From Dehalococcoidales bacterium (GTDB taxonomy: Bacteria; Chloroflexota; Dehalococcoidia; Dehalococcoidales; BS750m-G39), in the NCBI GenBank assembly GCA_034419075.1, contig DAOULR010000022.1, positions 2,598 to 66,597 of the forward strand: a DNA stretch of 64,000 bases. Direction: 5' to 3'. Position numbers and translations under genes: made by a program. Below are positions 6,360 through 33,126 of this stretch, piece by piece. The notes beneath the pieces were generated by a model. The model did not search any database and was not told the origin of the DNA. It saw only the letters and a program-made list of their open reading frames with translations. Position 1 is the first letter of the stretch, and the number at the start of each line of letters is the position of its first letter.

Positions 6360-6360
6360 T

Positions 6361-15255: not shown

Positions 15256-15324
15256 ATATAACCTCCATCTTTCTTAGTACTGAAGTCAAAATGGGGTATA
15301 AAAGACCGGCCAACATAACATACG

Positions 15325-17084: not shown

Positions 17085-17146
17085 AATTCACCTCCCGGCA
17101 AATTTATAAAAATAATGATCGTCTCTCGTATTTTAACACTAATTCT

Positions 17147-17174
17147 ATTATAGTAGAACAAATGATAAATACAA
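17147..17174 (-). promoter_or_regulatory. Putative sigma70-type promoter of the peptide/ATP-grasp operon
   Basis: Minus strand reads TTGTAT-16 nt-TATAAT, about 60 nt upstream of ATG 17084, inside a 149-nt AT-rich gap. Confidence 0.35.
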
Positions 17175-17233
17175 CAAAGTGACGATTTGCGCACTCACAA
17201 CAGCAGTTAGCAACCATTGTAATGATAGACTTT

Positions 17234-18028
17234 CTACTCGAGTTCACTTTGACTTCGTATTTTCTTCATAATTGACCGTCGCCCCAAGTAAAAATTGGTA
17301 GCACTGCTGTCAGCATTCCGAGCTTTCTCAAGCACTTCTTGAATTTTTTGTTGGTCGGCTCCTTCCTTTTCCAGTCTATACGCCTCATGTAAGTAGGGCA
17401 GAGCCGGGCTCAATTCATCTGGAAAGGGAGTTTTAATTGAATCTTCGAATACTCTCTGCCAATCATGACGGGCGTAAGATCTGGTAACTTCACCGCCTTG
17501 TCGGTAATTAACTACGTCTCTGGAGGATTGTAGTCGCCTCCCTGCAGGTGAGCTAGGCCTATCTGAAGGTACTTCAACTGATTGTTCCAGAGTTGTGTTT
17601 TCTAGTTCCCCTTTTCCTTCAATTACCCAACCACTCGGAACATAATCGGGCGGTATTTGGTATGCCTCGTCAGAGATGCGAACCCACAACACCCTCGATA
17701 TTTTAAATGTTCTCTGCGCACTTCGATAGTGACAATAGGCATCAAAATATTCGCTCCCGAGACCGTAAATGTTGATATCCCTCACTTTTATCGCTGGTTC
17801 CCCAGGCATTGGGTTGCCAGTTTCATACTCCATCGTTACACGAAGCTTTCTTGTGTATCCTAATCGGAGTAACTCAATTGTTTTGCTCTTTGTAACCTGA
17901 GCTTTGCCGGAGAATTCGGCAGTAGTCAGGTGACGAGATGCGTTTTGAGAAGGTCTTCTTCTTTGACTAAGCCAAATCACTAGAGTTACGAGGGCAACTA
18001 ATAGAATGACAATCCAACCCATTTCCAA
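17234..18028 (-). CDS. Membrane-anchored WYL-like domain protein
   Basis: N-terminal TM helix (GWIVILLVALVTLVIWL). Core ..VRDINIYGLGSEYFDAYCHYRSAQRTFKISRVLWVRI.. resembles the WYL domain (aromatic-x-L...RxFrxxRI). Likely ATG start at 18022. Confidence 0.6.
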   Translation of the reverse strand: MEMGWIVILLVALVTLVIWLSQRRRPSQNASRHLTTAEFSGKAQVTKSKTIELLRLGYTRKLRVTMEYETGNPMPGEPAIKVRDINIYGLGSEYFDAYCHYRSAQRTFKISRVLWVRISDEAYQIPPDYVPSGWVIEGKGELENTTLEQSVEVPSDRPSSPAGRRLQSSRDVVNYRQGGEVTRSYARHDWQRVFEDSIKTPFPDELSPALPYLHEAYRLEKEGADQQKIQEVLEKARNADSSATNFYLGRRSIMKKIRSQSELE

Positions 18029-18042
18029 TTATCTCCATTGCC

Positions 18043-21000
18043 TCAAAGAGGGCGAGTGTACCGACATTGGTTCTCTGTGTCCTTGTATCCAGAGCACCCT
18101 AAAAATACTCCTCTTCGGCCCCACCTAATTTCCATCTCTCTTCCGCATTTCGGACAAATCGTAGCATCTGGAATTAGAGCTTGTTTAAGGTCTTCTCGCT
18201 TCACATTTGCAGTTGAATTACACCTTTCACACTTGTAGAATGGCCCAAATCTCCCTCGTGGTATAACCTTCATTTTATGGCCACAATTGCTGCACAATCT
18301 TGAGGGAACCTTGCTCGGATTGATAGCTGGGGATAAACTGTCACCAGCCTCCCCCGGCATTTGCAGCCCACACTCATCCATGACCTGTTTGGTGAAATCT
18401 TCATTCTCCAGACGAAACATAAGTTCCTGCGTGTTCTTGTGCGAGAGCGCGTTTAGGCTGCCGAACCAGACCAGTCGGCCATCTACGACTATCACCTTCT
18501 GGTGCATTGAGGATCGCTGAATTACTTTGGCTCCAATCTGTTCAAGGTAGTTGAGCATTTTCTGGATTTCGCCATGGTCTGCGGTCCCTTGTTGATGAGG
18601 CGGGCGTGTTACTAATTCCACATTGATGCCTTTCTCCACCTTTGCTCTGAGTAAATCAACATATGTGCTGAGGCGATTCTTTGTGATAAATGGGCTCATA
18701 ATAATGATATATCGCCCGGAATTTTCCAAATCGTATCGGAGCCCAGAATGAAAATCATCCTCTGTCCAAAACGAACTAACCGCGCTGCTCTTTTCTTTTA
18801 AAGGCCAGAGTGTTTCCCGTGCTTGCCGTACCGCTTGGTCAGCGTAACCTGGCACCAGTTGGTCAGCCGCAAATGTTGGAAGTGGGGTAGATTCATCGAA
18901 TAGCACCTTGCTTAGTGACCACTCCCTATTTAATCGGGATTGTAGAAATGACAGGTTAGCAATGATAGCCAGCTTCTTTTTAGCTCGGCTGCAAGCAACA
19001 TTGATTAGACGTGCACCTGCTGAATCATCGACGTCTTCGGAATCTATCTTACCTTTAAGGAGCTTACCTATACGAAGACCTGTGCTATCTACGAGGTCGC
19101 ATATTATTAGTTCACGTTCACTACCTTGGAAACGGTGGACATTTGAGACCGTTACTTTATCTTTCAGTAATGAATCAATTTCTACCAAGGCCTTTATTAG
19201 ACGTGTCTGGGCTTTGTAAGGCGTTATTATTCCGATATCGGTGAAATTTCGAATCGCACTTTGGCATAGTTTTACTGCCAGAACAGCGTGGTAAAGATTA
19301 AATCTCGAATAACTACTGGTCCAGCTGCACCACGGGTCTATTGCAGATGTATCATACACACCAACACATGTGCCAGGACAGGGTTGGTATGATCTTACTC
19401 TAGGTTCCCCAGAAATGCCGTCTCGTAACTTGTCATTATAGAAAACGCTACTCACTATGGCTCTTATCTCTGGCTGCATCCTATATTGAGTTCTTAGCAT
19501 TACCATCGGGGAGTTCCCCATCTGCTCAAGTTCCGATTCTTTATCTATGCCTGCAGCCACATATATATCTCTACGCAACCACTCTTTAACTCTGCTATCA
19601 TCGCTCAAGGCTATAGGTGCCAATTGGCGGAAGTCGCCAGCAATGGTGATAGACCTCGTGGCCAAACTACACACCCAGTAGAGTGCCGGTATCCCGGCCA
19701 TACTGGCCTCGTCACAAACAATGGTGTCAAATTGCCTACCATATACCTCGTTCATGGTGCATGTTCTGGCAAGCGTAGTTGCTATTAACACCGCCTCATC
19801 TATTATCTGCTGCCTCATTTCTTCGATTTGCCACTCCAACTCAGTTATTTGGGTACGCAAATCTTCAATTTTTGCCCGTATGCCGGCAATCTCGCCTTCG
19901 AGAGTATCAGGTAATAAGGATTCCTGCTTTAGCTTACCCTCAATTTCGTTTACTTCAACGCGAAGTCTATTCAGTTTGCTTGTTGATTCCTTGAGATTTC
20001 CCTCCACTTTAGATTTTTGTTCAATCAACTCATTACGTTTTACCGCTAGATTGGAAATAGAGTATTCTATTCTGCTAATCGACATTCCTCTAAGGAACCT
20101 CGCGATACCTGACATCGCCTTTGTTTTCTGAAGACGGTTTTCTTCCTGCTCAAACTTCCCCGTTACACCAGATATCTTATCTCGTAAAGCCTCTATGGAA
20201 CTTTCCAACTCAGTATGAGAAGCCTCTTCTTGAGCAATTAGCTTTTTCGATGCTTCCCATTTCTCCAGTTGGCTTCTGAGTGCCTGTAATGTCGTAAGTC
20301 TGGTCTCCGTGTCGGTCAATTGCGCACGTAACTCAGAAAGTTGCTCTCTTAAAGGCCCACTCTTTCGCTCCGTGATTTTATCAAGATTGAGATTATCATC
20401 ATCTCCAATTTCTGAGATTTGAGGCGTGCCGAGCCTTAGGATACGCCCTTCTCGATAATGTTCGGTTTCCTGCAGCGGCTTCAAACAAGCTATCAGTGCC
20501 TGATCGATGGCAACGTTGGTATTAGCAGTGAGCAAAACACTCCGTCCGCACTGTATCATGCTTGCTACAGCAACTCCTACAGTGGTAGTCTTTCCAGTGC
20601 CTGGAGGACCCCATATATAACAAATCTCGCTCCCCAGGGCTTGTCGAATGGCTTTTTGCTGGTCTTCATTTAGTTTACCCCATTGCTCTTGTAGGTTTTG
20701 CCCTGGAATGAAAGACTCATTGATTTGGTATTGGAATTGTTTGCGTCTCAAGCATTTTTCGGCGATTATACAAGAAGCATCCTGTAAGGTATCAAGGCGT
20801 TCCGACAAACGTTCGAGAAGGTAATATGGCTGTGCTAGTATACGAGCTGACGGGACATACTCTCCCAGATCACTTTCTATCGCAACTAATATCTGGTTTC
20901 CTGAAACTCCAACAATATGGCCAGATGCGTCTGAGCTCGCTGTACGTACTAATACCGGAGTTTCATCAAAGGCGCCTGATAGAGTTGGGTCATCTAAGAT

Positions 21001-21135
21001 GAAGCTATATACGTATAGCGGTCCCCTTACCTCGACAAGCCTCCCGGCACGTACATCCCACCTAGCGGCGCCCTTTTTCTTCTGTTCCTCTATTTCAACT
21101 GCAAGGGCGTTTTTAAATTCGTTGATTATGCTCAA
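18043..21135 (-). CDS. SF1 (Upf1/DNA2-like) helicase with coiled-coil insert, C-terminal PLD-family nuclease domain and two topoisomerase-type Zn ribbons
   Basis: 1030 aa. Walker A GPPGTGKTT, DEASM, ~200-aa heptad-rich insert, HQKVIVVD...GSLN (HxK-x4-D PLD motif), CxxC...CxxC ribbons at the C-terminus. Confidence 0.85.
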   Translation of the reverse strand: MSIINEFKNALAVEIEEQKKKGAARWDVRAGRLVEVRGPLYVYSFILDDPTLSGAFDETPVLVRTASSDASGHIVGVSGNQILVAIESDLGEYVPSARILAQPYYLLERLSERLDTLQDASCIIAEKCLRRKQFQYQINESFIPGQNLQEQWGKLNEDQQKAIRQALGSEICYIWGPPGTGKTTTVGVAVASMIQCGRSVLLTANTNVAIDQALIACLKPLQETEHYREGRILRLGTPQISEIGDDDNLNLDKITERKSGPLREQLSELRAQLTDTETRLTTLQALRSQLEKWEASKKLIAQEEASHTELESSIEALRDKISGVTGKFEQEENRLQKTKAMSGIARFLRGMSISRIEYSISNLAVKRNELIEQKSKVEGNLKESTSKLNRLRVEVNEIEGKLKQESLLPDTLEGEIAGIRAKIEDLRTQITELEWQIEEMRQQIIDEAVLIATTLARTCTMNEVYGRQFDTIVCDEASMAGIPALYWVCSLATRSITIAGDFRQLAPIALSDDSRVKEWLRRDIYVAAGIDKESELEQMGNSPMVMLRTQYRMQPEIRAIVSSVFYNDKLRDGISGEPRVRSYQPCPGTCVGVYDTSAIDPWCSWTSSYSRFNLYHAVLAVKLCQSAIRNFTDIGIITPYKAQTRLIKALVEIDSLLKDKVTVSNVHRFQGSERELIICDLVDSTGLRIGKLLKGKIDSEDVDDSAGARLINVACSRAKKKLAIIANLSFLQSRLNREWSLSKVLFDESTPLPTFAADQLVPGYADQAVRQARETLWPLKEKSSAVSSFWTEDDFHSGLRYDLENSGRYIIIMSPFITKNRLSTYVDLLRAKVEKGINVELVTRPPHQQGTADHGEIQKMLNYLEQIGAKVIQRSSMHQKVIVVDGRLVWFGSLNALSHKNTQELMFRLENEDFTKQVMDECGLQMPGEAGDSLSPAINPSKVPSRLCSNCGHKMKVIPRGRFGPFYKCERCNSTANVKREDLKQALIPDATICPKCGREMEIRWGRRGVFLGCSGYKDTENQCRYTRPL

Positions 21136-21141
21136 TGCTGA

Positions 21142-24100
21142 TTACTCCACCGGCCACCCCGGTATCAATTCGTCAATCTCCGTCATCAACCGGATGGTCT
21201 CCTTAAGCGCTACAATGACCTTCTGATAGTGTGCAGAGTCATCGTAGGTCAATATCCTGCCCTTGCGGTCTTTGAGCCATTTCTGAGCAACTTGGTAGCC
21301 GCCGACGTGGAAATCCCAAACTTCTGCCGGCACACCTTCGAAGTACTGTGACTTGTTGATATTGACACGCCGGTTGTTGTCATCGTAGCTTACCTTTTCA
21401 ACCTCGTCGGAGCCGGTGACAGGATAGCGCGTGATGGGCTCACCCAGCGCAGGCGATTCCATGAGGTGCAGGGCTACCAGCTCGGCGCCCTTTGCCGCCA
21501 GCGCCTTGAACAGTTTTTTATCCGAGGTGAGCGGCAAGCGCGGGAAGTCTATCTTTAGAAACTCTGCATACCGGCTGCGGTAGGTAGGCGAGTGGAAGAC
21601 GGCGTAGGCGTAGTTGAAGATATCTTCCGGGCCAAAGGTTTCCTTAAGGTCTCCCCGGCCATCTTCAACAAATTTCAACCCCAGCTTCTCTTGAACAGCC
21701 TTGATGAACTCCGGGTTTAGATTGGGACGGCGTTTACCGCCTTCAAACTGCATCTCGCCTTTGGTGGAGTAAAGGTATAGTGGAAAGAGATAATCTTGCC
21801 CCTTGTTACCGAGATAAAAGGTACCGTGACAATTAGGATGTTCAGAGACCCCGAAATACGAATATTCTCCGCCAACTGTCTGTCGCATGGTGATTAATCC
21901 AAGGTTTTCTCTATTAATAAAATGGGACATTATTTCTGAGCGTGGTCGCCCGAGAAATCCGCTGCTTTTGCCTGTAAAATACGTCCAGCGGAAATCGAAG
22001 GGTCGGTACAAAATAGGGACGACACTCTCTTGCTTAATACCAAAATTCTGGAGATCCCTTTTTGCACTATTGATAGTCCAACCTGAAGTGTCGGGACCGA
22101 GATCAAAGTGCTCACGCGCATCTTCACTATCAAGGTCTGAAAATTTCTTTACCACCTTCAGCATTGTGTCGGCATCATCTTGTATTGCTAACTTATCTTT
22201 TTTCGTTTGAATACCAGAACTATATTGGATGAATACCTTGTTGATTACCGGATAGTAATTATATTCATCGTGAGTTGTGTCATCCATAGGGCAGAAGTAG
22301 AAATATGGCGAATTAACGTTAAGAGCTTCCCATTCGGTGGATTGAATAGAATTTGACTCAAGATACTCATATTTTTCTTCTTTGGGCCCAAACAATTCAT
22401 AATATTTAACACTACAGTCTTTTTCGGATGCTCCGACACTATCGGTTTTCACCATCAATATTATTGTGACTCCCTGTTGGATTGCGAAAACATTTTCATC
22501 AGTGACGTCAGCGGGTACTGATCTAGATGCCATAGTACTTCCATGTAAATTAAGTATATAAATCGAATTAAACGTGTTATACAATGAATATCGCATAACC
22601 CTGCTTGCTATCCCGTCAAGGAAGGAATTATTAATAATAAATCCTATAATACCCTTCCCAGTTTTTTCTATACGCCAATCTGCAAATCTGAGGAATTTCC
22701 ATTCTTCTCTATTGAGGTCGAACTTCTTTTCAGTCAAACCTTCTTTATATTTTTCCAAGAGATCCATAATCCACGCGCCTTCAAAAATGGAGCTTGAATA
22801 CGGCGGGTTGCCCAGTACCACCATTATCGGCTCATCTTTCTTAATCCGGGCGGCGGCGTTGGATTCCTCGGTTATCCACTGGGCAAACAGAGTTTCGGAG
22901 TGCTTGATTGCCTCCTCTAGCGTGTTGGTAAGATAAATACCCAGGCGCTGGTCGCTCTGGAACTCGTAGCCCGTCTCCTGCAGCAAGAGCCCGAGCTTGA
23001 GGTGAGCCACGGCGTAAGGTGCCATAAGCAGCTCGAAGCCGAAGATGCGGGGCAGTAGCTTCTTGGCCACATAGTTATTCCACATCCCTTCCTGACCCGT
23101 GAAAGACTGACGAATCTCGTTAACTACCATGTACAGGAAGGTGGCCGTACCCACCGCCGGGTCAAGGATGAGCGCCTTATCATCAGCCAGCCCTTGCGGT
23201 TTGTTGAAGCGGGTCTTCAGTAGGTGGTCGATTGAGCGGACAATGTAGCTGACTACCGGCTCCGGCGTGTAGTAAACGCCGCGCATCTCCCGTACCTTGG
23301 AGTCATAAGCAGTCAGGAAGGTCTCGTAGAAATGCACCACCGGGTCTTCCTTGCCGCTGTGCTTGCCGAAGTCTTTAAGAACCGCCTCCATATTCGCCTG
23401 GTCTAATACCTGTGCTAGGTCGTCGACCAGCCAGGCGATGCGGTCATCAAGGTCAGGTCCGGCGATGTTATTGAAAAGCTTGCGCAGGAACGGGTTTGTC
23501 TTCGGCAGGAGATAGGCGGCATTCTGGCGGGTAAAGTTCTTTTCCTCCGGGTGCGTGCACCGGGCGGCAAACAGGCCGTAGACGATGGTCTGAGCATACA
23601 TGTCGGCAAACTGCCCTGCAGAGAGGTCGGGAATTAGGTTATCGCGAAATGCCGCTAGCTGCACATGGAGATTACCACTTTTCGGCTCTTTCTCAAAGGC
23701 GTTGACGATAAGCTCTCTAATCATGTGTGCCAGGCGAGCCATTCGTAGCGCCAGTTCTTTCGGTGTGCCAACAGCCTCGGCTTTGTGAGCGAGAAAATTA
23801 CCAAGCAGCTCGACAACTGACTGAGCTCCATTGCTGTCGCGCTTGACTTTGCCATCTTTAGTTAGCGTGCCCAAACGTGCCGAAAATCGACGTTTGCCGT
23901 CTACATACCAGCGGAATTCGAGGTAATCAGTCAAGATGAGGTTGGTGAGCGGAGCAAGGTAACGCTTGAATCTTTCCCCGTCCGGCCCTTTCCCGCGCTC
24001 AATATCGTCCAGGCTCTTACCAACATCCTTGGCCTCTATATAGCCAACTTTAAGAGCACCCTTGGTAACCAGAAAGTCAGGGGCACCACATGCAATTCGT

Positions 24101-24267
24101 CGAGGCTCGTTGGTGGCGGTGATTCCCTCAGCCAGACTCTCCACCAGAGCTTCCAGCGCAGAGCGGTGGGTATGCTCGGTAGAATCGCCGGTGGCGAGTT
24201 TCCTCTCAATGGAATGTATGTAGTTTTGCACTAGCTTCACGTTATTTGTTATTTCTTCTCGGTTCAT
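21142..24267 (-). CDS. Type IIG-like restriction-modification enzyme (PD-ExK nuclease + gamma-class N6-adenine methyltransferase + C-terminal specificity region)
   Basis: 1041 aa. N-terminal GAPDF..x12..GYIEAKD (PD...ExK), motif I LDPAVGTATFL, motif IV GNPPY. The C-terminal VWDFHVGGYQVAQKWLKDRKGR block is known from type ISP/YeeA-like enzymes. Confidence 0.8.
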   Translation of the reverse strand: MNREEITNNVKLVQNYIHSIERKLATGDSTEHTHRSALEALVESLAEGITATNEPRRIACGAPDFLVTKGALKVGYIEAKDVGKSLDDIERGKGPDGERFKRYLAPLTNLILTDYLEFRWYVDGKRRFSARLGTLTKDGKVKRDSNGAQSVVELLGNFLAHKAEAVGTPKELALRMARLAHMIRELIVNAFEKEPKSGNLHVQLAAFRDNLIPDLSAGQFADMYAQTIVYGLFAARCTHPEEKNFTRQNAAYLLPKTNPFLRKLFNNIAGPDLDDRIAWLVDDLAQVLDQANMEAVLKDFGKHSGKEDPVVHFYETFLTAYDSKVREMRGVYYTPEPVVSYIVRSIDHLLKTRFNKPQGLADDKALILDPAVGTATFLYMVVNEIRQSFTGQEGMWNNYVAKKLLPRIFGFELLMAPYAVAHLKLGLLLQETGYEFQSDQRLGIYLTNTLEEAIKHSETLFAQWITEESNAAARIKKDEPIMVVLGNPPYSSSIFEGAWIMDLLEKYKEGLTEKKFDLNREEWKFLRFADWRIEKTGKGIIGFIINNSFLDGIASRVMRYSLYNTFNSIYILNLHGSTMASRSVPADVTDENVFAIQQGVTIILMVKTDSVGASEKDCSVKYYELFGPKEEKYEYLESNSIQSTEWEALNVNSPYFYFCPMDDTTHDEYNYYPVINKVFIQYSSGIQTKKDKLAIQDDADTMLKVVKKFSDLDSEDAREHFDLGPDTSGWTINSAKRDLQNFGIKQESVVPILYRPFDFRWTYFTGKSSGFLGRPRSEIMSHFINRENLGLITMRQTVGGEYSYFGVSEHPNCHGTFYLGNKGQDYLFPLYLYSTKGEMQFEGGKRRPNLNPEFIKAVQEKLGLKFVEDGRGDLKETFGPEDIFNYAYAVFHSPTYRSRYAEFLKIDFPRLPLTSDKKLFKALAAKGAELVALHLMESPALGEPITRYPVTGSDEVEKVSYDDNNRRVNINKSQYFEGVPAEVWDFHVGGYQVAQKWLKDRKGRILTYDDSAHYQKVIVALKETIRLMTEIDELIPGWPVE

Positions 24268-24272
24268 ATAGA

Positions 24273-24713
24273 CTACTCACTAATACCTAAAATAGCGGCC
24301 GCTTTTTCTATGAACCTCTCCGCTGAAGCAATAACCGCCTTCGCTCCAGATTGAGAAAAATTAGCTTCGTAATCGGCCGCTTCACGAAGATTCATGGCAT
24401 TTAGGAAGTCACGAACTGACTGGGCTTCCATTGTGCCCTCGTCTACAAATAGCGCTCCCAAAGCTACCGCCAGACAGTAATGGCTCTTCTCGCGGTATCC
24501 CTGAGAATAAACAAGTGCTCTGGCGGCATGGAACATGGCATAGTAGGCTTGTATAGTCGACCACTTATAGCGTCCATTTTCATAGCCTGCTTTTGCATCC
24601 GACAGGTCACTTCTGGCTACTGACAACTCCTTCTTAACCAGGTTTTTACCCCTGGCGAAGGAAACTATCTTCTTATTCTCAAGACACTGCTTAAACTCTC
24701 GATTCACTGGCAA
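24273..24713 (-). CDS. HEPN domain protein (toxin-like partner of MNT)
   Basis: 146 aa helical protein. Overlaps the upstream nucleotidyltransferase gene by 23 nt, the classic MNT-HEPN arrangement. Confidence 0.7.
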   Translation of the reverse strand: MPVNREFKQCLENKKIVSFARGKNLVKKELSVARSDLSDAKAGYENGRYKWSTIQAYYAMFHAARALVYSQGYREKSHYCLAVALGALFVDEGTMEAQSVRDFLNAMNLREAADYEANFSQSGAKAVIASAERFIEKAAAILGISE

Positions 24714-25257
24714 CTCTTTCCCATAGCACGATGCCGCGTTCGACTTCTTCCATGAAAGCCCGTTCTGATTCCTCCCCCTCTAACAGCTCGACAGGCGTCT
24801 TAATTACTGATTGAATATGAATATCCTCGTATCCCCTCGGGAATTTGAACTTACTAATAGTATTTGACACGCTTTCCCTGTGGTTCGATACCACGAATAA
24901 ATCGAGATCACTCTCAGAGGTATCTGTCCCTAAGGCACAGCTGCCGTATAACACTATGCGGTTTGATATCTTCTTTAGCTCTTCTACCAATGGTTCAATA
25001 AGCATGAGGTTTATCATTTTCTTTAACTCGATGACAGCAGAAGCCGAGGAATCAATCGAATAGAAAAACATCTTGCCTTCCCGGCGGCGGGTGACAGCAC
25101 CGGTCGAATAAAGCTCATTCAGCGTCCGGTTTGCTGATCCTGAAGATATTCCAAGCTTACGAACCAATTCTCGTTCATAGAATTCTTGGTCTGAGAATTT
25201 CGCCAGCAGGCCCAGCACTTTCTGGTTGCTTGTAGCGATTAGATGTGGTTTCAACAT
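24691..25257 (-). CDS. Minimal nucleotidyltransferase (MNT) with N-terminal winged-helix domain
   Basis: 188 aa. LYGSCALGTDTSESDLDLFVV matches GSxxxGxxxxxSDxDL. Confidence 0.8.
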   Translation of the reverse strand: MLKPHLIATSNQKVLGLLAKFSDQEFYERELVRKLGISSGSANRTLNELYSTGAVTRRREGKMFFYSIDSSASAVIELKKMINLMLIEPLVEELKKISNRIVLYGSCALGTDTSESDLDLFVVSNHRESVSNTISKFKFPRGYEDIHIQSVIKTPVELLEGEESERAFMEEVERGIVLWERVASESRV

Positions 25258-25543
25258 GTGCCATTTGCTCCAAATATTGAGTATATGCTCATTGTAGTGA
25301 GCAATAGAAGGAAAGTCAAGACCCTGTATAGGATTATGGCAATGGCTTACTTATTGCACAAAACTGACTTTTGTTCAATCTCGCCGCGTTCAATAGAAAA
25401 TCATAAAATGGTATATCAAGAACGCACTAAATTATCGAACCTTTAACCTAGGGGAAATGAATCATAAAAGCTATAGTAGAGCCTACCCCCCGAGAGGTTT
25501 TACACTATCTGGAATCGCGTCGAGTTACTCTTGGAAGTGCCGT

Positions 25544-25600
25544 AATTCTTGATACTTTCTTGACCATCCCAACCAATTTCTTGACACCTCTTTGACTTCC
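25544..25600 (-). promoter_or_regulatory. Operator copy 1 (four TCAAGRA half-sites, spacing 11/21/11) upstream of usp
   Basis: Reverse complement GGAAGTCAAAGAGGTGTCAAGAAATTGGTTGGGATGGTCAAGAAAGTATCAAGAATT aligns with copies 2 and 3. Sits 130 nt from ATG 25730. Confidence 0.7.
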
Positions 25601-25729
25601 ATGAAGATAAAATCAGAAGGTGATATTCATAAATCCCCTGAACTGTCTGACCATACGGCTAGGCTGTTCCTAGGAGAACTGACTGGAGAAGAAAGGTCTA
25701 TGGCCGTAAATCTGTAGAAAGCGAGTAGA

Positions 25730-26200
25730 ATGCTAGAGAAAATTCTTGTATGTTTGGACGGTTCCGAGTTAGCCGAGGCGATTCTACCCCTAGTGACAGA
25801 TTTAGCTAAACGGCTCGGTAGCGAGATTGTGCTCCTTAGGGTGCTTGTTAAGCCGACTTGGCTTTCTGGTTTGGGAGAGACTGTAATTGAGCCTAAGCAA
25901 TCTACCGACATGTCAGAACAAGAGGTCAATATAGATGCATACTTGGAACGCGTGGCCAGGCTATTATGGGAAAAAGGATTGGATGTTGAATGCGAGACTA
26001 TAGAAGGCCCAATCGGTGAGTCCATCGTTACCTATGCCAAAACGAACGAAGTAAGCCTGATTGCTCTCGCAACTCACGGTCACGGTAGACTTAAAAAACT
26101 CGCCCTAGGTAGTATAACTGATTTTGTACTTAGAAAGTCCGGGATCCCTGTCATTTCGATTAGTCCGGTTAGTACGTCAGTCAGACATCCAACAGTCTAA
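25730..26200 (+). CDS. Universal stress protein (UspA family)
   Basis: 156 aa. ILVCLDGSELAE...ALATHGHGRLKKLALGSITDFVLRKSGIPV. Confidence 0.85.
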   Translation: MLEKILVCLDGSELAEAILPLVTDLAKRLGSEIVLLRVLVKPTWLSGLGETVIEPKQSTDMSEQEVNIDAYLERVARLLWEKGLDVECETIEGPIGESIVTYAKTNEVSLIALATHGHGRLKKLALGSITDFVLRKSGIPVISISPVSTSVRHPTV

Positions 26201-26212
26201 AGTGTCAAAGAA

Positions 26213-27697
26213 TTATTGCTTAACACTCCTCTCTCGGACTTTTTTCGGTAAGTGGGTTAGTGGCAAATTCCTCCAGCGCCGATAGGCAAAATATACTACT
26301 ATTCCTATGGCCATCCAGACGATCCCGACCCAACGGCTAAAAGGCTGAGTGAACACTACTACTACCCATATTCCAGATGTAGCAAGCAGACCAAGGATAG
26401 CAGTCAGCGGTAGCTCTCGGCCTTTGATAGCAATATTTAAGCCGAGTTTAAATGGGCGGGATAGCTCTGGTTTTTTGACTCTTAGCCCTAAGATTGAAGC
26501 ATGCGCCAAGGCGAAACATAGTAAAGAGCCGAAGACGTAGAGTGCACCCAGATCAGTGAAAAAGTCGGGGTTAAAGAAACCAGGCGATAACATGAATATA
26601 GCTACGAGGCAAAACAGGATAATAGCCACGTAAGGGGTTCTAAACCGATGGTGGATACGCCCGAAAGTTTCTGGCAGTTGACCATGCCTAGACAAGTTGA
26701 ACGCGAGTCGGGATATGCCCAGAAGCCCGGCATTCGTAGCTGTTAGCAGGATAGTCGCCGCGAGAATTGCAACCAGAGGGGAAAATATTGATTGTAACAT
26801 TGGGGATGGCAGATTAGCGGCTATACCAGCTACCGGGTCTCTTGCCCATCCATTGACCGGGTCGCCCAAGACCTGAGGAGTCATCGCTGACAGGGCGACA
26901 ATGGAAATGCCGGCAAATAAGACAAGAACCGCCACAATCATGAATATATAAGCCCTCGGTATTCTTTTGGCTGGCCGTCGGGTTTCTTCAGCCAACTGAG
27001 ATACGGTTTCCACACCGGTGAAACATAACGCGGCAATAGCGATGCCAAAAACCAAGTTCTCAGTGGTCGGCCAGTTGCCCTGACCGAACATATGCTCAAA
27101 TAGGATCGCCGGGTTTGGTCTCAGTATTAACAGAACGCCCAGAGTTACCAGCGTAAGTTGCGTAAGGATATCCACGGCAATGAAGAATATGTTCATCCCA
27201 GAAGATTCCCTCACTCCAATGACATTAATGAACATGAGAAACAAGATGATTCCCATGGAAACAGCGGCGTTGACGACGGGTTCGCTCATGATGGGCCAGA
27301 AGTAGGCAAGATATGGGGGGATGGTATAAGCCGATATTGCCATTGTGACAATGTAGCTCAGCATTAGTCCCCAACCAGCGATAAAGCCAGCTAGGTCATT
27401 AAGTCCATGCCGGGCGAAGCTGGCCGAACCACCGGCCTCCGGTATCATAGCACCTCCCTCAGCATAGGTAAGGGCATTGAAGATGTATATAATACCAGCC
27501 AGTGCCAGTACAATGGGCGTTGCGCCGAGGGCCACTATGGCTACGATACCCAGTGCATAGTAAATAGACGAGCCGACGTCTCCATATCCGGCACTGAACA
27601 GGGCAGGGATGCCGAGCACACGCTTGAGGTGGAATGTTTTTATTCGGCGTGGTCTAAATATTCTATCGCCTGGTTTTGGTTTCCAGTTGTCCTGCAT
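26213..27697 (-). CDS. APC-family amino acid/polyamine permease
   Basis: 494 aa, ~12 TM. N-terminal GYGDVGSSIYYALG-type motif. Confidence 0.8.
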   Translation of the reverse strand: MQDNWKPKPGDRIFRPRRIKTFHLKRVLGIPALFSAGYGDVGSSIYYALGIVAIVALGATPIVLALAGIIYIFNALTYAEGGAMIPEAGGSASFARHGLNDLAGFIAGWGLMLSYIVTMAISAYTIPPYLAYFWPIMSEPVVNAAVSMGIILFLMFINVIGVRESSGMNIFFIAVDILTQLTLVTLGVLLILRPNPAILFEHMFGQGNWPTTENLVFGIAIAALCFTGVETVSQLAEETRRPAKRIPRAYIFMIVAVLVLFAGISIVALSAMTPQVLGDPVNGWARDPVAGIAANLPSPMLQSIFSPLVAILAATILLTATNAGLLGISRLAFNLSRHGQLPETFGRIHHRFRTPYVAIILFCLVAIFMLSPGFFNPDFFTDLGALYVFGSLLCFALAHASILGLRVKKPELSRPFKLGLNIAIKGRELPLTAILGLLATSGIWVVVVFTQPFSRWVGIVWMAIGIVVYFAYRRWRNLPLTHLPKKVRERSVKQ

Positions 27698-27802
27698 GTC
27701 TCTTATTTGGTGCAGCGGATGGTTCTGTCGCAGACGCTATCATATCTAGTCAATCCTCTAGCGACAGTCTGCTCCTATGAGCATCTCTATGCTAGCTTCA
27801 TA

Positions 27803-27858
27803 AAGGTCAAGGAGGTGTCAAGAAAGAGGTTTTGTCTGTCAAGAAGTTATCAAGAACC
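27803..27858 (+). promoter_or_regulatory. Operator copy 2 upstream of the permease gene
   Basis: AAGGTCAAGGAGGTGTCAAGAAAGAGGTTTTGTCTGTCAAGAAGTTATCAAGAACC. Sits 106 nt from ATG 27697. Confidence 0.7.
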
Positions 27859-27920
27859 ATGAATGAGATCGTGAGTTATTGGAGTGATGCTTCTTATATG
27901 AGGGATTATGGGCGATCACA

Positions 27921-28628
27921 CTATTCGCTGATCTTCAGCCGATATCCCACCCCGGGCTCGGTAATGATTAAACGTGGGCGAGCTGGGTCCGGTTCAATCT
28001 TGCGACGTAAGTTGCTGATGTTTACGTGCAGCATATGAAGTTCATCACCATACTCAGCTCCCCAAACTTCACGTAGCAGGTAACGGTGAGTCAGTACCTT
28101 TCCGGCGTGAGTTACCAGCACCCGAAGTAGCCCATACTCATTGGGTGTTAGTTGCACCTCGTTATCTGAGACAGTAACCAGCCTTCGTGATAGGTCAACT
28201 TTCAGGCTTCCGATGGTGAAGATTGGCTCAGGGGTTAGTTGAGCAGCACGGCGTAACGCGGCACGAAGACGGGCTAGTAGCTCGCCCACGCTGAAGGGCT
28301 TGGTCAGGTAATCATCTGCCCCAGCATCAAGCGCCGCTATTTTATTGTTTTCTGCGCCTCGGACCGATAGTATGATTATTGGTATTTGTGTCCACTCTCG
28401 GAGTAGTCGTGTCACCTCAACCCCATCAATGTCGGGCAGCCCCAGGTCCAGAATTACAATATCCGGTTTGTCTTCGACAACACTTGACAGCGCATCCTTG
28501 CCCGAGGCTGCCTCTAGTACCATGTATGCCTGAGATATGAGCGTAACACGCAAGAATCGCCGGATAGAGTCTTCATCATCAACAACTAAGACCTTCATAT
28601 TACTCATCGCGTTTCTCCGTAGTGTCAA
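27921..28628 (-). CDS. OmpR-family response regulator, KdpE-like
   Basis: 235 aa. Receiver domain plus winged-helix output. Overlaps the kinase stop. Alternative start at 28607. Confidence 0.85.
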   Translation of the reverse strand: MTLRRNAMSNMKVLVVDDEDSIRRFLRVTLISQAYMVLEAASGKDALSSVVEDKPDIVILDLGLPDIDGVEVTRLLREWTQIPIIILSVRGAENNKIAALDAGADDYLTKPFSVGELLARLRAALRRAAQLTPEPIFTIGSLKVDLSRRLVTVSDNEVQLTPNEYGLLRVLVTHAGKVLTHRYLLREVWGAEYGDELHMLHVNISNLRRKIEPDPARPRLIITEPGVGYRLKISE

Positions 28629-30189
28629 GACCAGACTCGCCTATCGGTAACGTGAGCCTGATGATAGTACCACCGCTCGGATTATTCTCGGCTTCGATGT
28701 GACCGCCATGAGTTTCGACGATGCCCTTGCTGATGGATAATCCTAGTCCTGTCCCTGCTACGTTATCCGGACGCTTTATGCGATAGAACTTGTCAAAAAC
28801 GTGTGGTAAATCGTGCGGGGGAATACCAATTCCGTGATCAGCTATTTCGATATGCACTTCCTGGGCAACCTGTCGTCCTTTAATCTCAATCGGTGAGTCT
28901 AGTGGTGAGTATTTCATCGCGTTGTCCAGAATGTTGGCCAATGTCTGTACGATAAGGCCAAAATCTACCGAAATAAAGGATATCTCTGTGGGTATGTCCA
29001 TTTTAATTGAACGGGCACTAGCGCGAGTTCCAAGCTGCTCTAAAGCTGCTCCCACCAGGTCCTGTACTTCGGATGGTTGTCTGGATAGCGATAGAGCCCC
29101 AGCTGTAATTCTGGACTCGTCAAGCAGGTTGGTAATAAGATGGCTCAATCTGTCGGCTTCCTCCCGGGCAACCTGTATCAGGTTTTTCTTGGCGGTGTCA
29201 TCTAGACCCATCCCCTCTTCCTGTAGACTGCTCAGGGTACCGATAATGGACACTAAAGGTGTACGTAGGTCATGGGAAATCGCATTGAGAAGGGCGGTCT
29301 GCAGTTTCTCGGTAGCCTTTAACACCTGTGCCTCATGCAACTCGTCAGCCAACTGGATGCCTTCGATAGCCACTGCAACCAAATCAGAATAGGCTCTTAA
29401 GAGCCGCTGTTGCTCTATGGTCAAATCACCTGCGTTGCTAGTCGCTCTCAGTGCCATTACTCCTACGGCTCCCCTCACTGTAATCAGAGGCAGATAGCAT
29501 ACTTTTATATCGGACTTTGTATCAATTCCATACCCCGTTTTTTCTTGGTGCTGAAAAGACCAGATTGCTAAGGCGTATTCATTATCATCAATTGTAACGT
29601 CGCTATCGGTGCTATGTACTTCAAGTTTCCCTGGATTTTTAGTATTGGGAAGGAAGATTATGACTTCGCGTCCCAGTGCTTCTTTTATTCTCTTAGCTAT
29701 AGCCTTGATATAAGACTCAAGGTCACCAGAGATAGCCAGATCTCGCCCCAAAGCATAGAGGGTAGCCGTTTCTCGTTCGCGGAGCCTTGCTGCCTCAGTC
29801 TGCTGACGGATCCGTGAAGTTAAGTAGCTGATGGTTATGCCAACTAATAGTAATGCTATAAAGGTGAGAAAATACTGCGTGTCATCCACGGCAAAGGTAA
29901 AATAAGGGGTAATAAAGAAAAAATCAAAAGCCAGTACCCCCAGAATGGATACCAGAATGGATGGGCCTAGACCTCCGATAACAGCCGAGACCGTAACACA
30001 TAGTAGATAGATCATAATTATATTGGTCGGAGCGAAGAACGTATGAACCAATTGACCTAGAGCGGTGGCCAGTAATACCAGTCCCAAGCCTATAAGATAA
30101 CCCCGCCACTTAGAGGCCTCTCTAAGCAATATTCCCCCTTGATCCGCAAGTTTTTTATCAGGCTTGGGGCGGGTTTCTTGTAATGCCAT
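28600..30189 (-). CDS. Sensor histidine kinase, KdpD C-terminal-half type (DUF4118 membrane domain-GAF-like-HisKA-HATPase); lacks the KdpD N-terminal and Usp domains
   Basis: 529 aa. DUF4118-like 4-TM block (..AFDFFFITPYFTF..), H-box ISHDLRTPL, G-boxes DHGIGI and GTGLGLSI. Confidence 0.8.
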   Translation of the reverse strand: MALQETRPKPDKKLADQGGILLREASKWRGYLIGLGLVLLATALGQLVHTFFAPTNIIMIYLLCVTVSAVIGGLGPSILVSILGVLAFDFFFITPYFTFAVDDTQYFLTFIALLLVGITISYLTSRIRQQTEAARLRERETATLYALGRDLAISGDLESYIKAIAKRIKEALGREVIIFLPNTKNPGKLEVHSTDSDVTIDDNEYALAIWSFQHQEKTGYGIDTKSDIKVCYLPLITVRGAVGVMALRATSNAGDLTIEQQRLLRAYSDLVAVAIEGIQLADELHEAQVLKATEKLQTALLNAISHDLRTPLVSIIGTLSSLQEEGMGLDDTAKKNLIQVAREEADRLSHLITNLLDESRITAGALSLSRQPSEVQDLVGAALEQLGTRASARSIKMDIPTEISFISVDFGLIVQTLANILDNAMKYSPLDSPIEIKGRQVAQEVHIEIADHGIGIPPHDLPHVFDKFYRIKRPDNVAGTGLGLSISKGIVETHGGHIEAENNPSGGTIIRLTLPIGESGLDTTEKRDE

Positions 30190-30329
30190 GTAATTAATCT
30201 CCGAATCACATTCTATACTTTGTTTTATACTAAGTCTATTTCGGGCGGCAGGTAAGGTTGAAGATATAGAAGCTCGTATTAAAATCTCTCGTACAATAGA
30301 CTTTAACTATTTACTAATGTAGCAAGAGG

Positions 30330-30385
30330 AAGGTCAAGGAGGTATCAAGAAAGTCTTCTTGTCGGTCAAGAAAGTATCAAGAATT
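30330..30385 (+). promoter_or_regulatory. Operator copy 3 upstream of the kinase-regulator operon
   Basis: AAGGTCAAGGAGGTATCAAGAAAGTCTTCTTGTCGGTCAAGAAAGTATCAAGAATT. Sits 141 nt from ATG 30189. Confidence 0.7.
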
Positions 30386-30486
30386 AATACTTGATTCTAG
30401 CTACAAGTGGAGGCTAAGATAATTTAACAAAAACTCAGATTGTTGAGCCCGACTGCACAAGATAATGGTTCGTGCAGCACCGGAGA

Positions 30487-30524
30487 TTAAAAAAGAGGGC
30501 CGAGAATTCTCTCGACCCTCTTTA
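30487..30524 (-). terminator. Hairpin terminator after the last gene of the element (possibly bidirectional)
   Basis: AGAGGGCCGAGA-attc-TCTCGACCCTCT stem flanked by an A-run (T-run on the minus strand). Confidence 0.6.
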
Positions 30525-30536
30525 GCTTTAACGATG

Positions 30537-31022
30537 TTAGAACTCGAACAACGCCGGCTGCTCCGCTTTTCTCTTAGTTGCCTCCTCCTCTTTCTCCTGC
30601 CTTCTCTCGGCCTTCTCCCTCTCCAGCCTGGCCTGGGTTCTCTTACGATAGAGCCATTCCTTCAGCCGATTCAGTTCTGCCAGCTGGTAATCATTGATTG
30701 AGTCCACGACGATATCGCCGGGCATCTCACTCTTACCCCACCGGCGACAGGTCTTGGTGGCGATGTGGAGGTAGATTTGGGTCCAGTCGCTGTCTATTGG
30801 CTGTGCCAGAGAGACAGTCATAAGGTAGGCGCAGACTTCGGCGTCGGTGCCGGCAATCTCCTCACCCCTGATTGCCCTGATGTTTATCTCCAGCCTCTCC
30901 AAGGTGACGGCCGTTTTAAGCCACTCGGGCAGAGTGTCTCCCCAACCCCCGGGGAAAACGATGATGGGATCGGTCAGGCACCCCACCAGCTCGGAGATGC
31001 CCTGTTCCATAGTCTTATTCAA
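30537..31022 (-). CDS. Hypothetical protein (161 aa) with charged C-terminal helix
   Basis: ORF track. Last gene of the minus-strand block. No family recognised. Confidence 0.5.
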   Translation of the reverse strand: MNKTMEQGISELVGCLTDPIIVFPGGWGDTLPEWLKTAVTLERLEINIRAIRGEEIAGTDAEVCAYLMTVSLAQPIDSDWTQIYLHIATKTCRRWGKSEMPGDIVVDSINDYQLAELNRLKEWLYRKRTQARLEREKAERRQEKEEEATKRKAEQPALFEF

Positions 31023-31087
31023 TTGTCCTTCTCACCTCCCTTTTAGTCTGATTTTGGGCATAGTAACCCTTTCAATCCTTTGCAGCC

Positions 31088-31384
31088 TTAAATCATCGAC
31101 TGCTGGCTGCCGTACTCCATGACCTTGCGCTCCTCCTCCAACGCTTCCTTGGGTATGAGGTTGCGGATGCGCTCGACGTAGCCCTTCATGTAGGTGTTGA
31201 AGCTATCCACTTTGGAGGCCATAGTGGCCGCGGGCTGGTCGATATACCCCGGCAGATGGGGTATTCGCTTAAGCTCCTCGGCTTTCTCACGGATTAGCCA
31301 CAGAGTCGGCCTGATGGAACTCATAAGCTCCTCGACCTCATCGGCATTACGGCTCACGCTGACCGTGCTCCACTTTATAGGCAC
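31088..31384 (-). CDS. Hypothetical protein (98 aa)
   Basis: ORF track. Co-directional. No family recognised. Confidence 0.45.
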   Translation of the reverse strand: MPIKWSTVSVSRNADEVEELMSSIRPTLWLIREKAEELKRIPHLPGYIDQPAATMASKVDSFNTYMKGYVERIRNLIPKEALEEERKVMEYGSQQSMI

Positions 31385-31433
31385 AAAATCACCTCCTTTC
31401 TGGGCATAGTTGCCCGTCCGATTCCGTCCTTGT

Positions 31434-31643
31434 TTAGTTAGCCGAGGGCGACATCATCCGTTTCATCATGGCGTCGAGAGCCTGCTTGACCAGCCACTCG
31501 CCCAGGCACTTCTCGTCGCACCAGGCTCCCAGCGTTAGCGGGACTTGCTGGCGCTCGTCGGTCAGCACCATAGCATCACGCTTCATGAAGTTGTCCTCAG
31601 GCAGCTCCTGGTTACAGTTGAGACAGTGAAGCTCCTCCATCAC
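31434..31643 (-). CDS. Hypothetical small protein (69 aa) with CxxC
   Basis: ORF track. GGAGG upstream. CLNC...C..C cysteines. Confidence 0.4.
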   Translation of the reverse strand: MMEELHCLNCNQELPEDNFMKRDAMVLTDERQQVPLTLGAWCDEKCLGEWLVKQALDAMMKRMMSPSAN

Positions 31644-31811
31644 TCGACCTCCTTTCCAGGTATTTCTTGGCTCTGGCCACAGAGAGGTAATCAGGGCACT
31701 TCTGGGAGCACCGGTGGCTGTGCCCCTTAAGACACCCCCTACAGAGCCAGTAGCACTTTCGCCTGTTGGGGCGACGGTAATTCAAATTCACCCCCTTCCA
31801 GCCACAAAAGA

Positions 31812-31882
31812 GGGGGTATCACTCCCACGCTTGGGGAGCGATACCCCCTTAAAAAAGCAAAAAAGCGGGGTCTCCCCCGCCT
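31812..31882 (-). terminator. Two tandem hairpin terminators downstream of the clamp gene
   Basis: Minus strand has GCGGGGGAGACCCCGC followed by TTTTTTGCTTTTTT. It then has the GGGGGTATCGCTCCCC/GGGAGTGATACCCCC hairpin followed by TCTTTTG. Confidence 0.55.
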
Positions 31883-31917
31883 TTCTGCGTGGCTCTTTTG
31901 TTTGGGCTGTAAGCGTT

Positions 31918-33126
31918 CTATTTGGCTTTAACTGGCTGTTTGGCTCGTCTAGGCTTTGCTTTAGGCTTCTCGGCTACTGGCTCGGTAGCCTCTGGCTGAC
32001 TCTCGGCTGGCTCGGTGGCAACCTCGGCTTTGGCTTGTTCGGCTTTAGCCTTTACCTCTGCCTGCGCCTCTGGCGTCAGCATCGGCATTACCACCAGTTG
32101 ATAGCCGTCAACGGTAAAGAGCAGTGGCGATACGCCGTTGGTGAGCTTAAGCTCCACCATACCCCCACAAGCCTTGAGGGCGTCGGCAAGATACTTGCCG
32201 TCCACCCTTATTCTGACCGTCTCACCGAGGGTGTCGGCTGCTAGCTCGGCTTGACCCTTATCATCGGGGTTAGCCATCACCAGCCTGCCTTCGCCAGCGG
32301 TGAGGTCAATCGGGTAGGCTTTGCTGTCGGATATGGCTTTGAGCGAGCTAACCGCCTTGATTGCCTCTACCGTGTCAAAGTGAACGAAGGTGCTAAACTC
32401 GGTAGGTATCAGCTTCTCATAGTCGGGGAAGTTACCCTCAAGGCTAGCCCACTTGTAGCGGATTAGCTCGGTGTCTATGGTGAGCGTCTTGATGTCCTCA
32501 CCGTCAAAGCTAACCCTCGCCCGCTTGGCTCTCCGCAGGGCATTGGCTATGCCCTGAAGCTCGTCACGGCTTATCAGAGCTTGCCCCTCTCCATCCTCGT
32601 AGTCAAGGCTTGTTACCGCCAGCCTGAAGCCGTCGGCACTGACCAGAGTCAATTTACCGTCTTTAGCCACCAAGCTGACACAAGCTAAAACAGGTCTATC
32701 GTCATCGGTGGCGGTAAACGGCAATACCCTTGACAGCGCCTCTGATAGCTCTAGGCTGCCGATGTTGGGCTTGACCGAGTTGTTGGGGCTGACCCTGACC
32801 TCGCAGAGGCTCATCGGCGTCTTATCGCCAATCCATTCGCTATCGGCAAGTTGGCTGGTATTAGCTCCGCAGATTACCTTAAGCCTCTTGTGTCCGTTAG
32901 CCTGCGACCCGCTAGCACTACCGTTAGACGGTATCACCTTGACGATGTTACTACCGCCCAAAGCCTTAAGGTATCCGAGTAAGCCTTTGCGCCCTATGGT
33001 CAAGTCCATAAGCATTACCCTTTCGGCTAACGCTCTGGACAGAGCGCCTACCAGCACAGCCTTGTGAGCGACAAAGCCGTCGCCTGAACGCTTGCCCACG
33101 ATATTAAGTTGTTCTATTTTAATCAC
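31918..33126 (-). CDS. DNA polymerase III beta (DnaN)-like sliding clamp with Ala/Glu/Lys-rich C-terminal tail
   Basis: 402 aa. TDDDRPVLACVSLVAKDGKLTLVSADGFRLAV, GNFPDYEKLIP and YQLVVMPM match clamp domain II/III landmarks. The last ~50 aa are low-complexity. Confidence 0.7.
   Translation of the reverse strand: MIKIEQLNIVGKRSGDGFVAHKAVLVGALSRALAERVMLMDLTIGRKGLLGYLKALGGSNIVKVIPSNGSASGSQANGHKRLKVICGANTSQLADSEWIGDKTPMSLCEVRVSPNNSVKPNIGSLELSEALSRVLPFTATDDDRPVLACVSLVAKDGKLTLVSADGFRLAVTSLDYEDGEGQALISRDELQGIANALRRAKRARVSFDGEDIKTLTIDTELIRYKWASLEGNFPDYEKLIPTEFSTFVHFDTVEAIKAVSSLKAISDSKAYPIDLTAGEGRLVMANPDDKGQAELAADTLGETVRIRVDGKYLADALKACGGMVELKLTNGVSPLLFTVDGYQLVVMPMLTPEAQAEVKAKAEQAKAEVATEPAESQPEATEPVAEKPKAKPRRAKQPVKAK

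Follow-up and report, generated by a model that had tools for sequence, protein, structure and literature searches.

Three predicted KdpE-type activator boxes ahead of a short kdpD-kdpE pair, a universal stress protein gene and an APC permease gene in a Dehalococcoidales bacterium

Introduction

At pho promoters about 10 bp separate the binding site from the -10 hexamer downstream of it; the site takes the place of the -35 element, and sigma-70 is recruited by PhoB. The KdpE operator of kdpFABC in Escherichia coli is said to have been described by Sugiura in 1992. KdpE activates kdpFABC both in E. coli (PMC3264566) and in Mycobacterium smegmatis (PMC5401905), and the E. coli protein protects CATTTTTATACTTTTTTTACACC at -72 to -50, with the half-sites TTTATA and TTTACA placed 11 bp apart (PMC3264566; Narayanan 2012). 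Among the transporters which concern us, KimA is a K+/H+ symporter of the KUP family having the APC fold (PDB 6S3K; PMC6994465). The present work deals with a repeated box of about 54 nt in a stretch of 64,000 nt of Dehalococcoidales bacterium DNA (assembly GCA_034419075.1, contig DAOULR010000022.1), which is called the window here and to which all coordinates refer. Three copies of the box precede a universal stress protein gene (usp), an APC-superfamily permease gene and a gene pair for a short KdpD kinase and a KdpE-type response regulator. On the basis of sequence comparison, these three boxes are very probably KdpE-type activator sites for the neighbouring regulator.

Nothing specific on a KdpE box or regulon of Chloroflexi or Dehalococcoides was found in the literature. 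KdpE boxes and the direct-repeat operators of OmpR/PhoB type are of an already known kind; what is new is the combination of a class II layout having two sites per promoter, a truncated kinase and a regulon which extends over Kdp, Trk, KimA, Usp and an uncharacterised permease.

Position and sequence of the boxes

The three repeat copies reported in the initial annotation were found at 25546-25596, 27806-27856 and 30333-30383, and the TCAAG half-sites at offsets 0, 11, 32 and 43 are present in each of them. Every copy has the same orientation to its own gene, the distance from the box end to the start codon being 130 nt for usp, 106 nt for the permease and 141 nt for the kinase. Copy 1 is on the plus strand in gene orientation, and the GTCAAG form is its reverse complement. 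Read in gene orientation, the composite box of about 54 nt is TTCTTGATAnTTTCTTGAC-N13-TTCTTGACACCTCCTTGAC, the second block being written also as TTCTTGAYACCTCyTTGAC, and its half-site TTCTTGAYA forms a direct repeat at offsets 0/11/32/43 in the three window copies and in 36 foreign sites. The half-sites are thus the 11-bp-phased direct repeats of OmpR/PhoB/KdpE type that had been proposed. Two details had to be corrected. The second of the two consensus blocks was one base short, for which reason its 18-nt version matches nothing in the window (the correct form is GTCAAGAARKTATCAAGAA, of 19 nt), and the spacer between the two blocks, given as 10-11 nt, is 11 nt in all three copies. The half-site pairs are as follows.

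25546..25564, plus strand: usp box, distal pair TTCTTGATACTTTCTTGAC, predicted at about -74 to -56
25578..25596, plus strand: usp box, proximal pair TTCTTGACACCTCTTTGAC, predicted at about -42 to -24, over the -35 position
27806..27824, minus strand: permease box, proximal pair TTCTTGACACCTCCTTGAC, by pattern and matrix
27838..27856, minus strand: permease box, distal pair TTCTTGATAACTTCTTGAC, by pattern and matrix
30333..30351, minus strand: kinase box, proximal pair TTCTTGATACCTCCTTGAC, by pattern and matrix
30365..30383, minus strand: kinase box, distal pair TTCTTGATACTTTCTTGAC, by pattern and matrix

A repeat finder gave the second and third copies as a 54-nt direct repeat (27803-27856 and 30330-30383, 85% identical), both inverted relative to 25543-25609. 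When the 64 kb were searched with mismatch-tolerant patterns, these three sites alone were found; the matches observed numbered 3 to 6, where dinucleotide shuffles would lead one to expect 0.00 to 0.26. A position matrix was also trained on 76 sites, taken only from other genomes and metagenomes, with a maximum of 84 bits; it scores the window boxes at 68-75 bits, the next best position in the 64 kb being -18. Because of the shuffle expectation and the scores obtained from foreign sites, chance is excluded as the source of the three copies. The best extra single-dimer candidate, CATCCTTGATAATTTCCAGACGCG at 2252-2275 on the minus strand (9.2 bits, against up to 4.2 in shuffles), lies inside a URO-D-like open reading frame (1216-2553) and was set aside as probably due to chance.

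Promoter geometry

The promoter alignment comprises 36 distinct sites, collected by a search pattern which forced neither the fourth half-site nor the -10. The fourth half-site (TTGAc) and a gcTAnaaT hexamer are conserved across these sites, the TA of the hexamer begins exactly 16 nt past the T of the last TTGAC, and conservation is confined to the half-site positions, the spacer being not conserved. The corresponding hexamers in the window are listed below.

25608..25613, plus strand: predicted -10 of the usp promoter, TAAAAT, by sequence and by the column conserved in the 36 sites
27789..27794, minus strand: predicted -10 of the permease promoter, TAGCAT, by the conserved column
30316..30321, minus strand: predicted -10 of the kdpD-kdpE promoter, TACATT, by the conserved column

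If TAnnnT is taken as the -10, the distal pair would span about -74 to -56 and the proximal pair about -42 to -24, with 10-11 bp between the end of the latter and the hexamer, and leaders of roughly 85-120 nt are predicted. A consensus sigma-70 scan gave no -35/-10 pair at the three box positions. The third and fourth TTGAC(A) were also tried as ordinary -35 elements and rejected, since they stand 21 and 10 nt from the -10 and no promoter is called there by the consensus scan; at such distances neither TTGACA nor TTGAC is usable as a -35. The proximal pair stands in the place of the -35, and these promoters are therefore without a usable -35 of their own; as the pair replaces this element, it is a predicted activator site, unlike a classical operator. 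A predicted activator site about 10 bp from the -10, in place of the -35, is the layout of class II (pho-box-like) promoters.

Upstream of the kinase box there is one further signal.

30492..30523, minus strand: strong intrinsic-terminator-like hairpin of 14 pairs followed by a T run, also inverted repeat I23

This hairpin ends the upstream gene, and the kdpD promoter is therefore insulated. An RNA element in the leaders was considered and rejected, as the predicted leaders of the three units are no more stably folded than shuffled sequences (z = -0.6, -1.7 and +0.9). With Rfam at gathering thresholds, one tRNA only was found in the whole window and no c-di-AMP (ydaO/kimA) riboswitch.

The regulator and the kinase

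The co-encoded KdpE-like regulator had been named as the candidate reader of the boxes, and the protein comparisons favour it. The two genes are given here.

27921..28607, minus strand: kdpE-type response regulator, 228 aa, receiver and winged-helix Trans_reg_C domains
28600..30189, minus strand: short KdpD histidine kinase, 529 aa, DUF4118-GAF-HisKA-HATPase, by Pfam and NCBIfam

The mechanical open reading frame of the regulator begins at TTG 28628, whereas its homologues start at ATG 28607; with this start the kinase and regulator genes overlap by 8 nt. The best PDB match of the regulator is E. coli KdpE (4KNY, 3e-69), followed by another OmpR-family protein at 4e-44, and its top NCBIfam model is KdpE, which makes it a KdpE orthologue. 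In the database searched, close homologues from Dehalococcoidia number in thousands. Homologues 80-84% identical close kdpA-kdpB-kdpC-kdpD-kdpE operons in the stretches L002/L003 and L005 (the L numbers denote stretches of other genomes or metagenomes which carry the box or homologues), where KdpD is full-length with 899-900 aa and where the same four-half-site box, e.g. TTCTTGATAGTTTCTTGATTAGCTACACCTCTTTCTTGACACATCCTTGAC, stands upstream of kdpF/kdpA. Box and recognition helix are thus shared with genuine kdp operons: the helix HMLHVNISNLRRKIE and the wing ITEPGVGYRL are identical in L005, and one helix residue differs in L002. The residues Y191, R193 and H198, for which base reading is proposed in E. 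coli KdpE, are M, H and N in the window regulator, and R200 and T215 are kept; changes at these positions together with kept backbone and wing contacts would fit a half-site that is shifted but related. A kdpE orthologue adjoins the box in L002, L005, L006, L008, L010, L018, L019, L021, L026, L028 and L031.

Against the E. coli KdpD model the kinase aligns over positions 373-884, and with the corresponding C-terminal part of the KdpD of L002, which is full-length, it shares 68% identity. It is without the KdpD_N and Usp domains of the full KdpD architecture, and within the 64 kb no KdpD_N coding sequence or remnant was found; the short length is kept at 513-529 aa in relatives (L006, L010, L018).

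As a separate observation, the window carries a second pair of OmpR-family regulator and histidine kinase genes at 5586-8097 on the plus strand; this regulator is 40% identical to the KdpE-type one and has no box near it.

Distribution of the box in other genomes

The exact pattern TTCTTGAYA-N2-TTCTTGA-N14-TTNTTGAYA was scanned against one genome per species, 185,579 species in all. The scan gave 24 stretches, all of them from Chloroflexota (Dehalococcoidia, Anaerolineae, Caldilineaceae), and a metagenome scan added 49 further stretches. The motif is rare and its identifiable targets are K+-transport or cassette genes, so it is not the frequent one lacking promoter bias that would have counted against the proposal in the initial annotation. 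For each site the downstream DNA was compared to reference proteins, and the first same-strand gene was recorded, distinct sites being counted.

kdpA: 27 distinct sites
usp: 12 distinct sites
window-type permease: 9 distinct sites
short kdpD (then kdpE): 8 distinct sites
trkH (then trkA): 4 distinct sites
kimA-like: 4 distinct sites
distant APC/KimA-like: 2 distinct sites
gene not identified: 8 distinct sites
contig too short to tell: 8 distinct sites

The identified downstream genes are thus kdpA, trkH, kimA, short kdpD, usp or the window-type permease. Three of the sites left over in this count could be assigned later: L039 has trkH followed by short kdpD, L081 a second kimA-like gene, and L045 (3367-5685) an APC permease with two fused Usp domains. 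Among the boxed kimA-like genes there is a full-length orthologue of the K+/H+ symporter KimA of Bacillus subtilis (1e-143 against PDB 6S3K). Orthologous usp genes with the same box occur in L006, L008, L010, L024, L028 and L032, and the box stands ahead of kdpD-kdpE in the window, L018, L021, L030, L060, L077 and L078.

In one genome, two adjacent 8-kb blocks (L023 and L028, contig CAVZKR010000002.1) show the order box-kdpFABC-kdpD(full length)-kdpE-box-usp with a convergent box-permease. As the kdp boxes and the usp/permease boxes are contiguous there, usp and permease belong to the KdpE regulon even with the pump present. This order suggests that the window cassette arose from a similar one by loss of kdpFABC and of the 5' half of kdpD. 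Taken together, the regulon is not private to the window locus and is a predicted phylum-wide KdpE regulon.

The surveyed stretches also contain a few boxes before genes without K+ link or Pfam match, namely paralogues of 111 and 218 aa in L011 (6487-7741) and a protein of 88 aa in L040 (13523-13884), and in L080 (278-1103) a MarR/HTH-type regulator has two divergent boxes ahead of it; all of these are possible further members of the regulon. In the kdp operons a conserved hydrophobic small open reading frame of 30 codons, MNDLTFLAIVLLFFLVTWGLIFVCQRLMRP in L002 (2617-2709) and MNDLASLVLLILFFLITFGLVLICKRLMKS in L005 (about 2601-2693), is placed between the KdpE-box promoter and kdpF. It is present also in the Chloroflexota kdp operons of L014, L022, L023, L029, L033 and L038, and it might encode one more small membrane peptide for Kdp.

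Usp, permease and the cassette

The two remaining boxed genes are convergent, with their stop codons 12 nt apart.

25730..26200, plus strand: usp, stand-alone universal stress protein, 156 aa, Pfam Usp 1.6e-24
26213..27697, minus strand: APC-superfamily permease, 494 aa, with the N-terminal peptide WKPKPGDRIFRPRR, Pfam AA_permease_2 2.8e-42

The permease belongs to the APC superfamily by its Pfam matches (PF13520 2.8e-42, PF00324 3.3e-38). It falls under every NCBIfam equivalog cut-off, and therefore no substrate is assignable. In the PDB it matches amino-acid transporters best (5e-29), KimA following at 8e-11; against the KimA profile it gives 1e-14 with 98% probability, compared with 8e-6 and 84% for a canonical APC-Usp protein. 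Equivalents of KimA Y43, T121, S125, T230, E233 and Y377 are retained, whereas the essential, K+-binding D36 of KimA (Kup D23) is without an aligned acidic partner, Pro31 being set opposite to it by hhalign.

The signature of the KUP family is IYGDIGTSPLY. The first transmembrane segment (TM1) of the permease reads GYGDVGSSIYY, for which reason a KUP-family transporter was considered; no Pfam K_trans match appears even at E = 10, the Asp of the GYGDVGSS motif is Asn in relatives 46-55% identical, and hhalign does not set this Asp opposite KimA D36, so that KUP membership was downgraded to a minority hypothesis. K+ as the substrate is likewise a minority hypothesis, an amino acid or osmolyte tied to K+ homeostasis being at least as likely. 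Two other derivations were tried and dropped: usp and permease as a split KimA (the window Usp is not similar to the cytoplasmic domain of KimA, the probability being 0.15%), and the stand-alone Usp as a detached Usp domain of KdpD, to which it has generic similarity only (22% identity, E = 7e-5).

An alignment (A2) of the window permease and its 36 closest non-redundant relatives was prepared, and 23 of its 37 sequences carry one or two C-terminal fused Usp domains. In view of these fusions, the neighbouring genes for Usp and permease resemble a functional pair of the Rosetta-stone kind in split form, and the fused permease-Usp of L045 is likewise behind a KdpE box. To our knowledge, no member of the APC permease-Usp fusion family has a demonstrated substrate.

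Short kdpD-kdpE-usp with a convergent transporter is a recurring cassette, in which the transporter slot is filled by the permease in the window, L006/L007, L012, L024, L028 and L032 and by TrkH-TrkA in L008-L010. An N-terminal cytoplasmic peptide, W(K/Q)PKPGDR(I/T)FRPRR, is common to the permease (27617-27697, minus strand) and to the unrelated TrkH of the same slot; it was seen in the TrkH N-termini of L008 (about 13330-13461, minus strand), L010 and L075, with 52% identity over 27 aa (E = 1.5e-5). In the wider permease family it occurs in 3 of 11 unfused members (the window, P0241 and P0272) and in none of the 26 fused ones. The peptide may be a shared regulatory or docking tag. A rather speculative proposal, to which we give a low chance, is that permease and Usp form an unrecognised uptake system induced by K+ starvation, for K+ or a substitute ion or osmolyte, which would be interchangeable with TrkHA; W(K/Q)PKPGDRxFRPRR would then be the common docking or regulatory tag, e.g. 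for the co-induced stand-alone Usp, so that transporters of two different folds would have one post-translational control in common, in addition to the KdpE box.

Proposed mechanism and alternative explanations

From the orthology of the proteins we infer that the short KdpD would presumably phosphorylate KdpE on K+ limitation or on a related ionic or osmotic cue. One head-to-tail dimer of phosphorylated KdpE would bind the distal pair TTCTTGATAnTTTCTTGAC at about -74 to -56, and a second dimer the proximal pair TTCTTGACACCTCCTTGAC, three helical turns downstream on the same face of the helix. The proximal dimer would stand in for the -35 and recruit RNA polymerase in the manner of PhoB at pho boxes. 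The promoters would fire only with phosphorylated KdpE, which would induce kdpD-kdpE (positive autoregulation), usp and the permease.

Several points weigh against this reading. The -10 hexamers and the transcription start sites are predictions, and repression is conceivable from a site that overlaps the -35. The regulator scores 250 bits, below the NCBI KdpE equivalog cut-off of 325, and it has His in place of R193, on which the DNA binding of E. coli KdpE depends. The kinase, being without the N-terminal KdpD and Usp domains, may sense another signal. Within the 64 kb no kdpA, kdpB, kdpC, trk or kimA gene was found, and with kdpFABC missing the link to K+ is one of homology and context only. 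The box ahead of the short kdpD is absent in L008 and L010, so that autoregulation is not universal.

The sites could have another reader. A paralogous KdpE from a canonical kdpFABC-kdpD-kdpE operon elsewhere in the genome might be the main one, leaving the short KdpD and its KdpE redundant or as a second input, which we consider unlikely. The kdp-linked and the cassette-linked regulators have essentially the same recognition helix and wing and are therefore indistinguishable at the DNA level, and the box is common to canonical operons and to the usp/permease pair, even contiguously in one genome (L023 and L028). The 64 kb, however, hold no second kdpE and no kdpFABC, the only other OmpR-type pair is 40% identical, and the cassette kdpD-kdpE has its own box in the window and in the six other stretches named above, as a self-contained circuit would. 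The direction of control can be turned around as well. In a repressor operator, the regulator bound at the proximal pair would occlude RNA polymerase and the genes would be off when the kinase is active, and the overlap of this pair with the polymerase footprint agrees with it. This is quite unlikely, since the promoters have no -35 usable unaided, kdpFABC is driven from the identical box and is under positive control by KdpE in both E. coli and M. smegmatis, and the geometry equals that of PhoB-activated pho-box promoters.

A non-regulatory origin of the repeats, as remnants of mobile elements or as substrates for site-specific or homologous inversion of usp-permease, is extremely improbable. 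Boxes 1 and 2 do form an inverted repeat around usp-permease, this segment has one orientation to kdpDE in the window and the opposite one in L006/L028, and the locus lies in an island of low guanine-cytosine (GC) content. Against it, the box also precedes single genes or operons without a partner copy (kdpA, kimA), the distance to the -10 and the gene orientation are fixed in more than 60 independent sites, the half-site positions alone are conserved and not the spacer, and the inversion is more readily understood as a side effect of having two promoters in inverted orientation. Activation by the neighbouring KdpE-type regulator is therefore preferred.

Setting of the locus

The inverted repeat formed by boxes 1 and 2 is of 64 nt with 78% complementarity and flanks the usp-permease segment (25546-27856; 10702-12926 in L006, 3952-6208 in L028). 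In the window and L018 the gene after kdpE is the permease, and in L006, L024 and L028 it is usp; this switch of usp-permease orientation would agree with an inversion through recombination of one promoter with the other.

The cassette is inside a low-GC island at 14000-33000, with 41-52% GC against 55-65% in the flanks, which is rich in defence-type genes, among them the following.

18043-21135, minus strand: SF1 helicase-PLD nuclease-zinc ribbon protein
21142-24267, minus strand: Type ISP restriction-modification enzyme
24273-24713 and 24691-25257, both minus strand: HEPN and nucleotidyltransferase pair

Since the cassette is found among different neighbours in L006, L008 and L010, it may be mobile as a module. 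A 402-aa protein with only weak matches to the three DNA polymerase III beta-clamp domains is encoded at the island's edge (31918-33126, minus strand); this may be an orphan or divergent sliding-clamp-like gene.

Significance

The data provide a precise operator and promoter model for a two-component system of Dehalococcoidia/Chloroflexota, a phylum in which hardly any regulon has been defined by experiment and few members can be cultivated. The predicted KdpE regulon there is unlike the textbook arrangement of one regulator for one operon, as it would join K+-uptake promoters (Kdp, Trk, KimA) with Usp and an APC permease. For a permease family that is very abundant in Dehalococcoidia metagenomes, a first functional clue is obtained, which points to K+ or osmotic homeostasis and away from the JGI label 'basic amino acid/polyamine antiporter'. 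A conserved lineage that does without the N-terminal half of KdpD is also a natural experiment on the role of that half.

Comparison with known systems

The sites of E. coli and M. smegmatis were compared by eye on quoted sequences. The distal pair TTGATACTTTCTTGAC(A/C) agrees with the footprinted E. coli sequence TTTATACTTTTTTTACA at 14 of 17 positions in the same 11-bp register, TTTATA-CTTTT-TTTACA there corresponding to TTGATA-CTTTC-TTGAC(A/C) here. The location is alike as well (-72 to -50 there, about -74 to -56 for the distal pair here), and the regulators are orthologous (3e-69). The E. coli site differs in that position 3 of the half-site is T there and G here, where a conserved TTC also stands ahead of it; here, moreover, a second dimer site follows 32 bp downstream and replaces the -35, and the targets are not kdpFABC.

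In M. smegmatis (PMC5401905) the footprinted site is of 22 bp, GGCCTTGATGGTTTCTTTACGG or CCTTGATGGTTTCTTTAC on the other strand, and 14 of 19 positions match, with the CTTGAT/CTTxAC repeat in the same register. A long 5' untranslated region is a further likeness, being 120 nt there and predicted at about 85-120 nt here. The mycobacterial promoter has a single pair only, as in E. coli, whereas two pairs stand three helical turns apart here; binding of KdpE to the kdpDE promoter was not seen there, whereas kdpDE has its own box here. The pho boxes of PhoB resemble the present ones as tandem 11-bp direct-repeat units, often in multiples, but they serve another regulator with the consensus CTGTCAT, and their units are contiguous while one 11-bp unit is skipped here.

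Split KdpD proteins are described from Deinococcus-Thermus and cyanobacteria (PMC5716572), where a kinase corresponding to the C-terminal half is likewise encoded beside the regulator. Those systems have a separate KdpD-N gene and a kdp pump; here no KdpD-N gene lies within the 64 kb, the Usp stands alone, and a non-Kdp transporter is found in place of the pump. True KimA orthologues of Anaerolineae (L026, L031, L081) are preceded by the same box, although the window permease is without the C-terminal domain of KimA. Compared with the APC permease-Usp fusions, finally, permease and Usp are encoded here by separate convergent genes, each with its own KdpE box.

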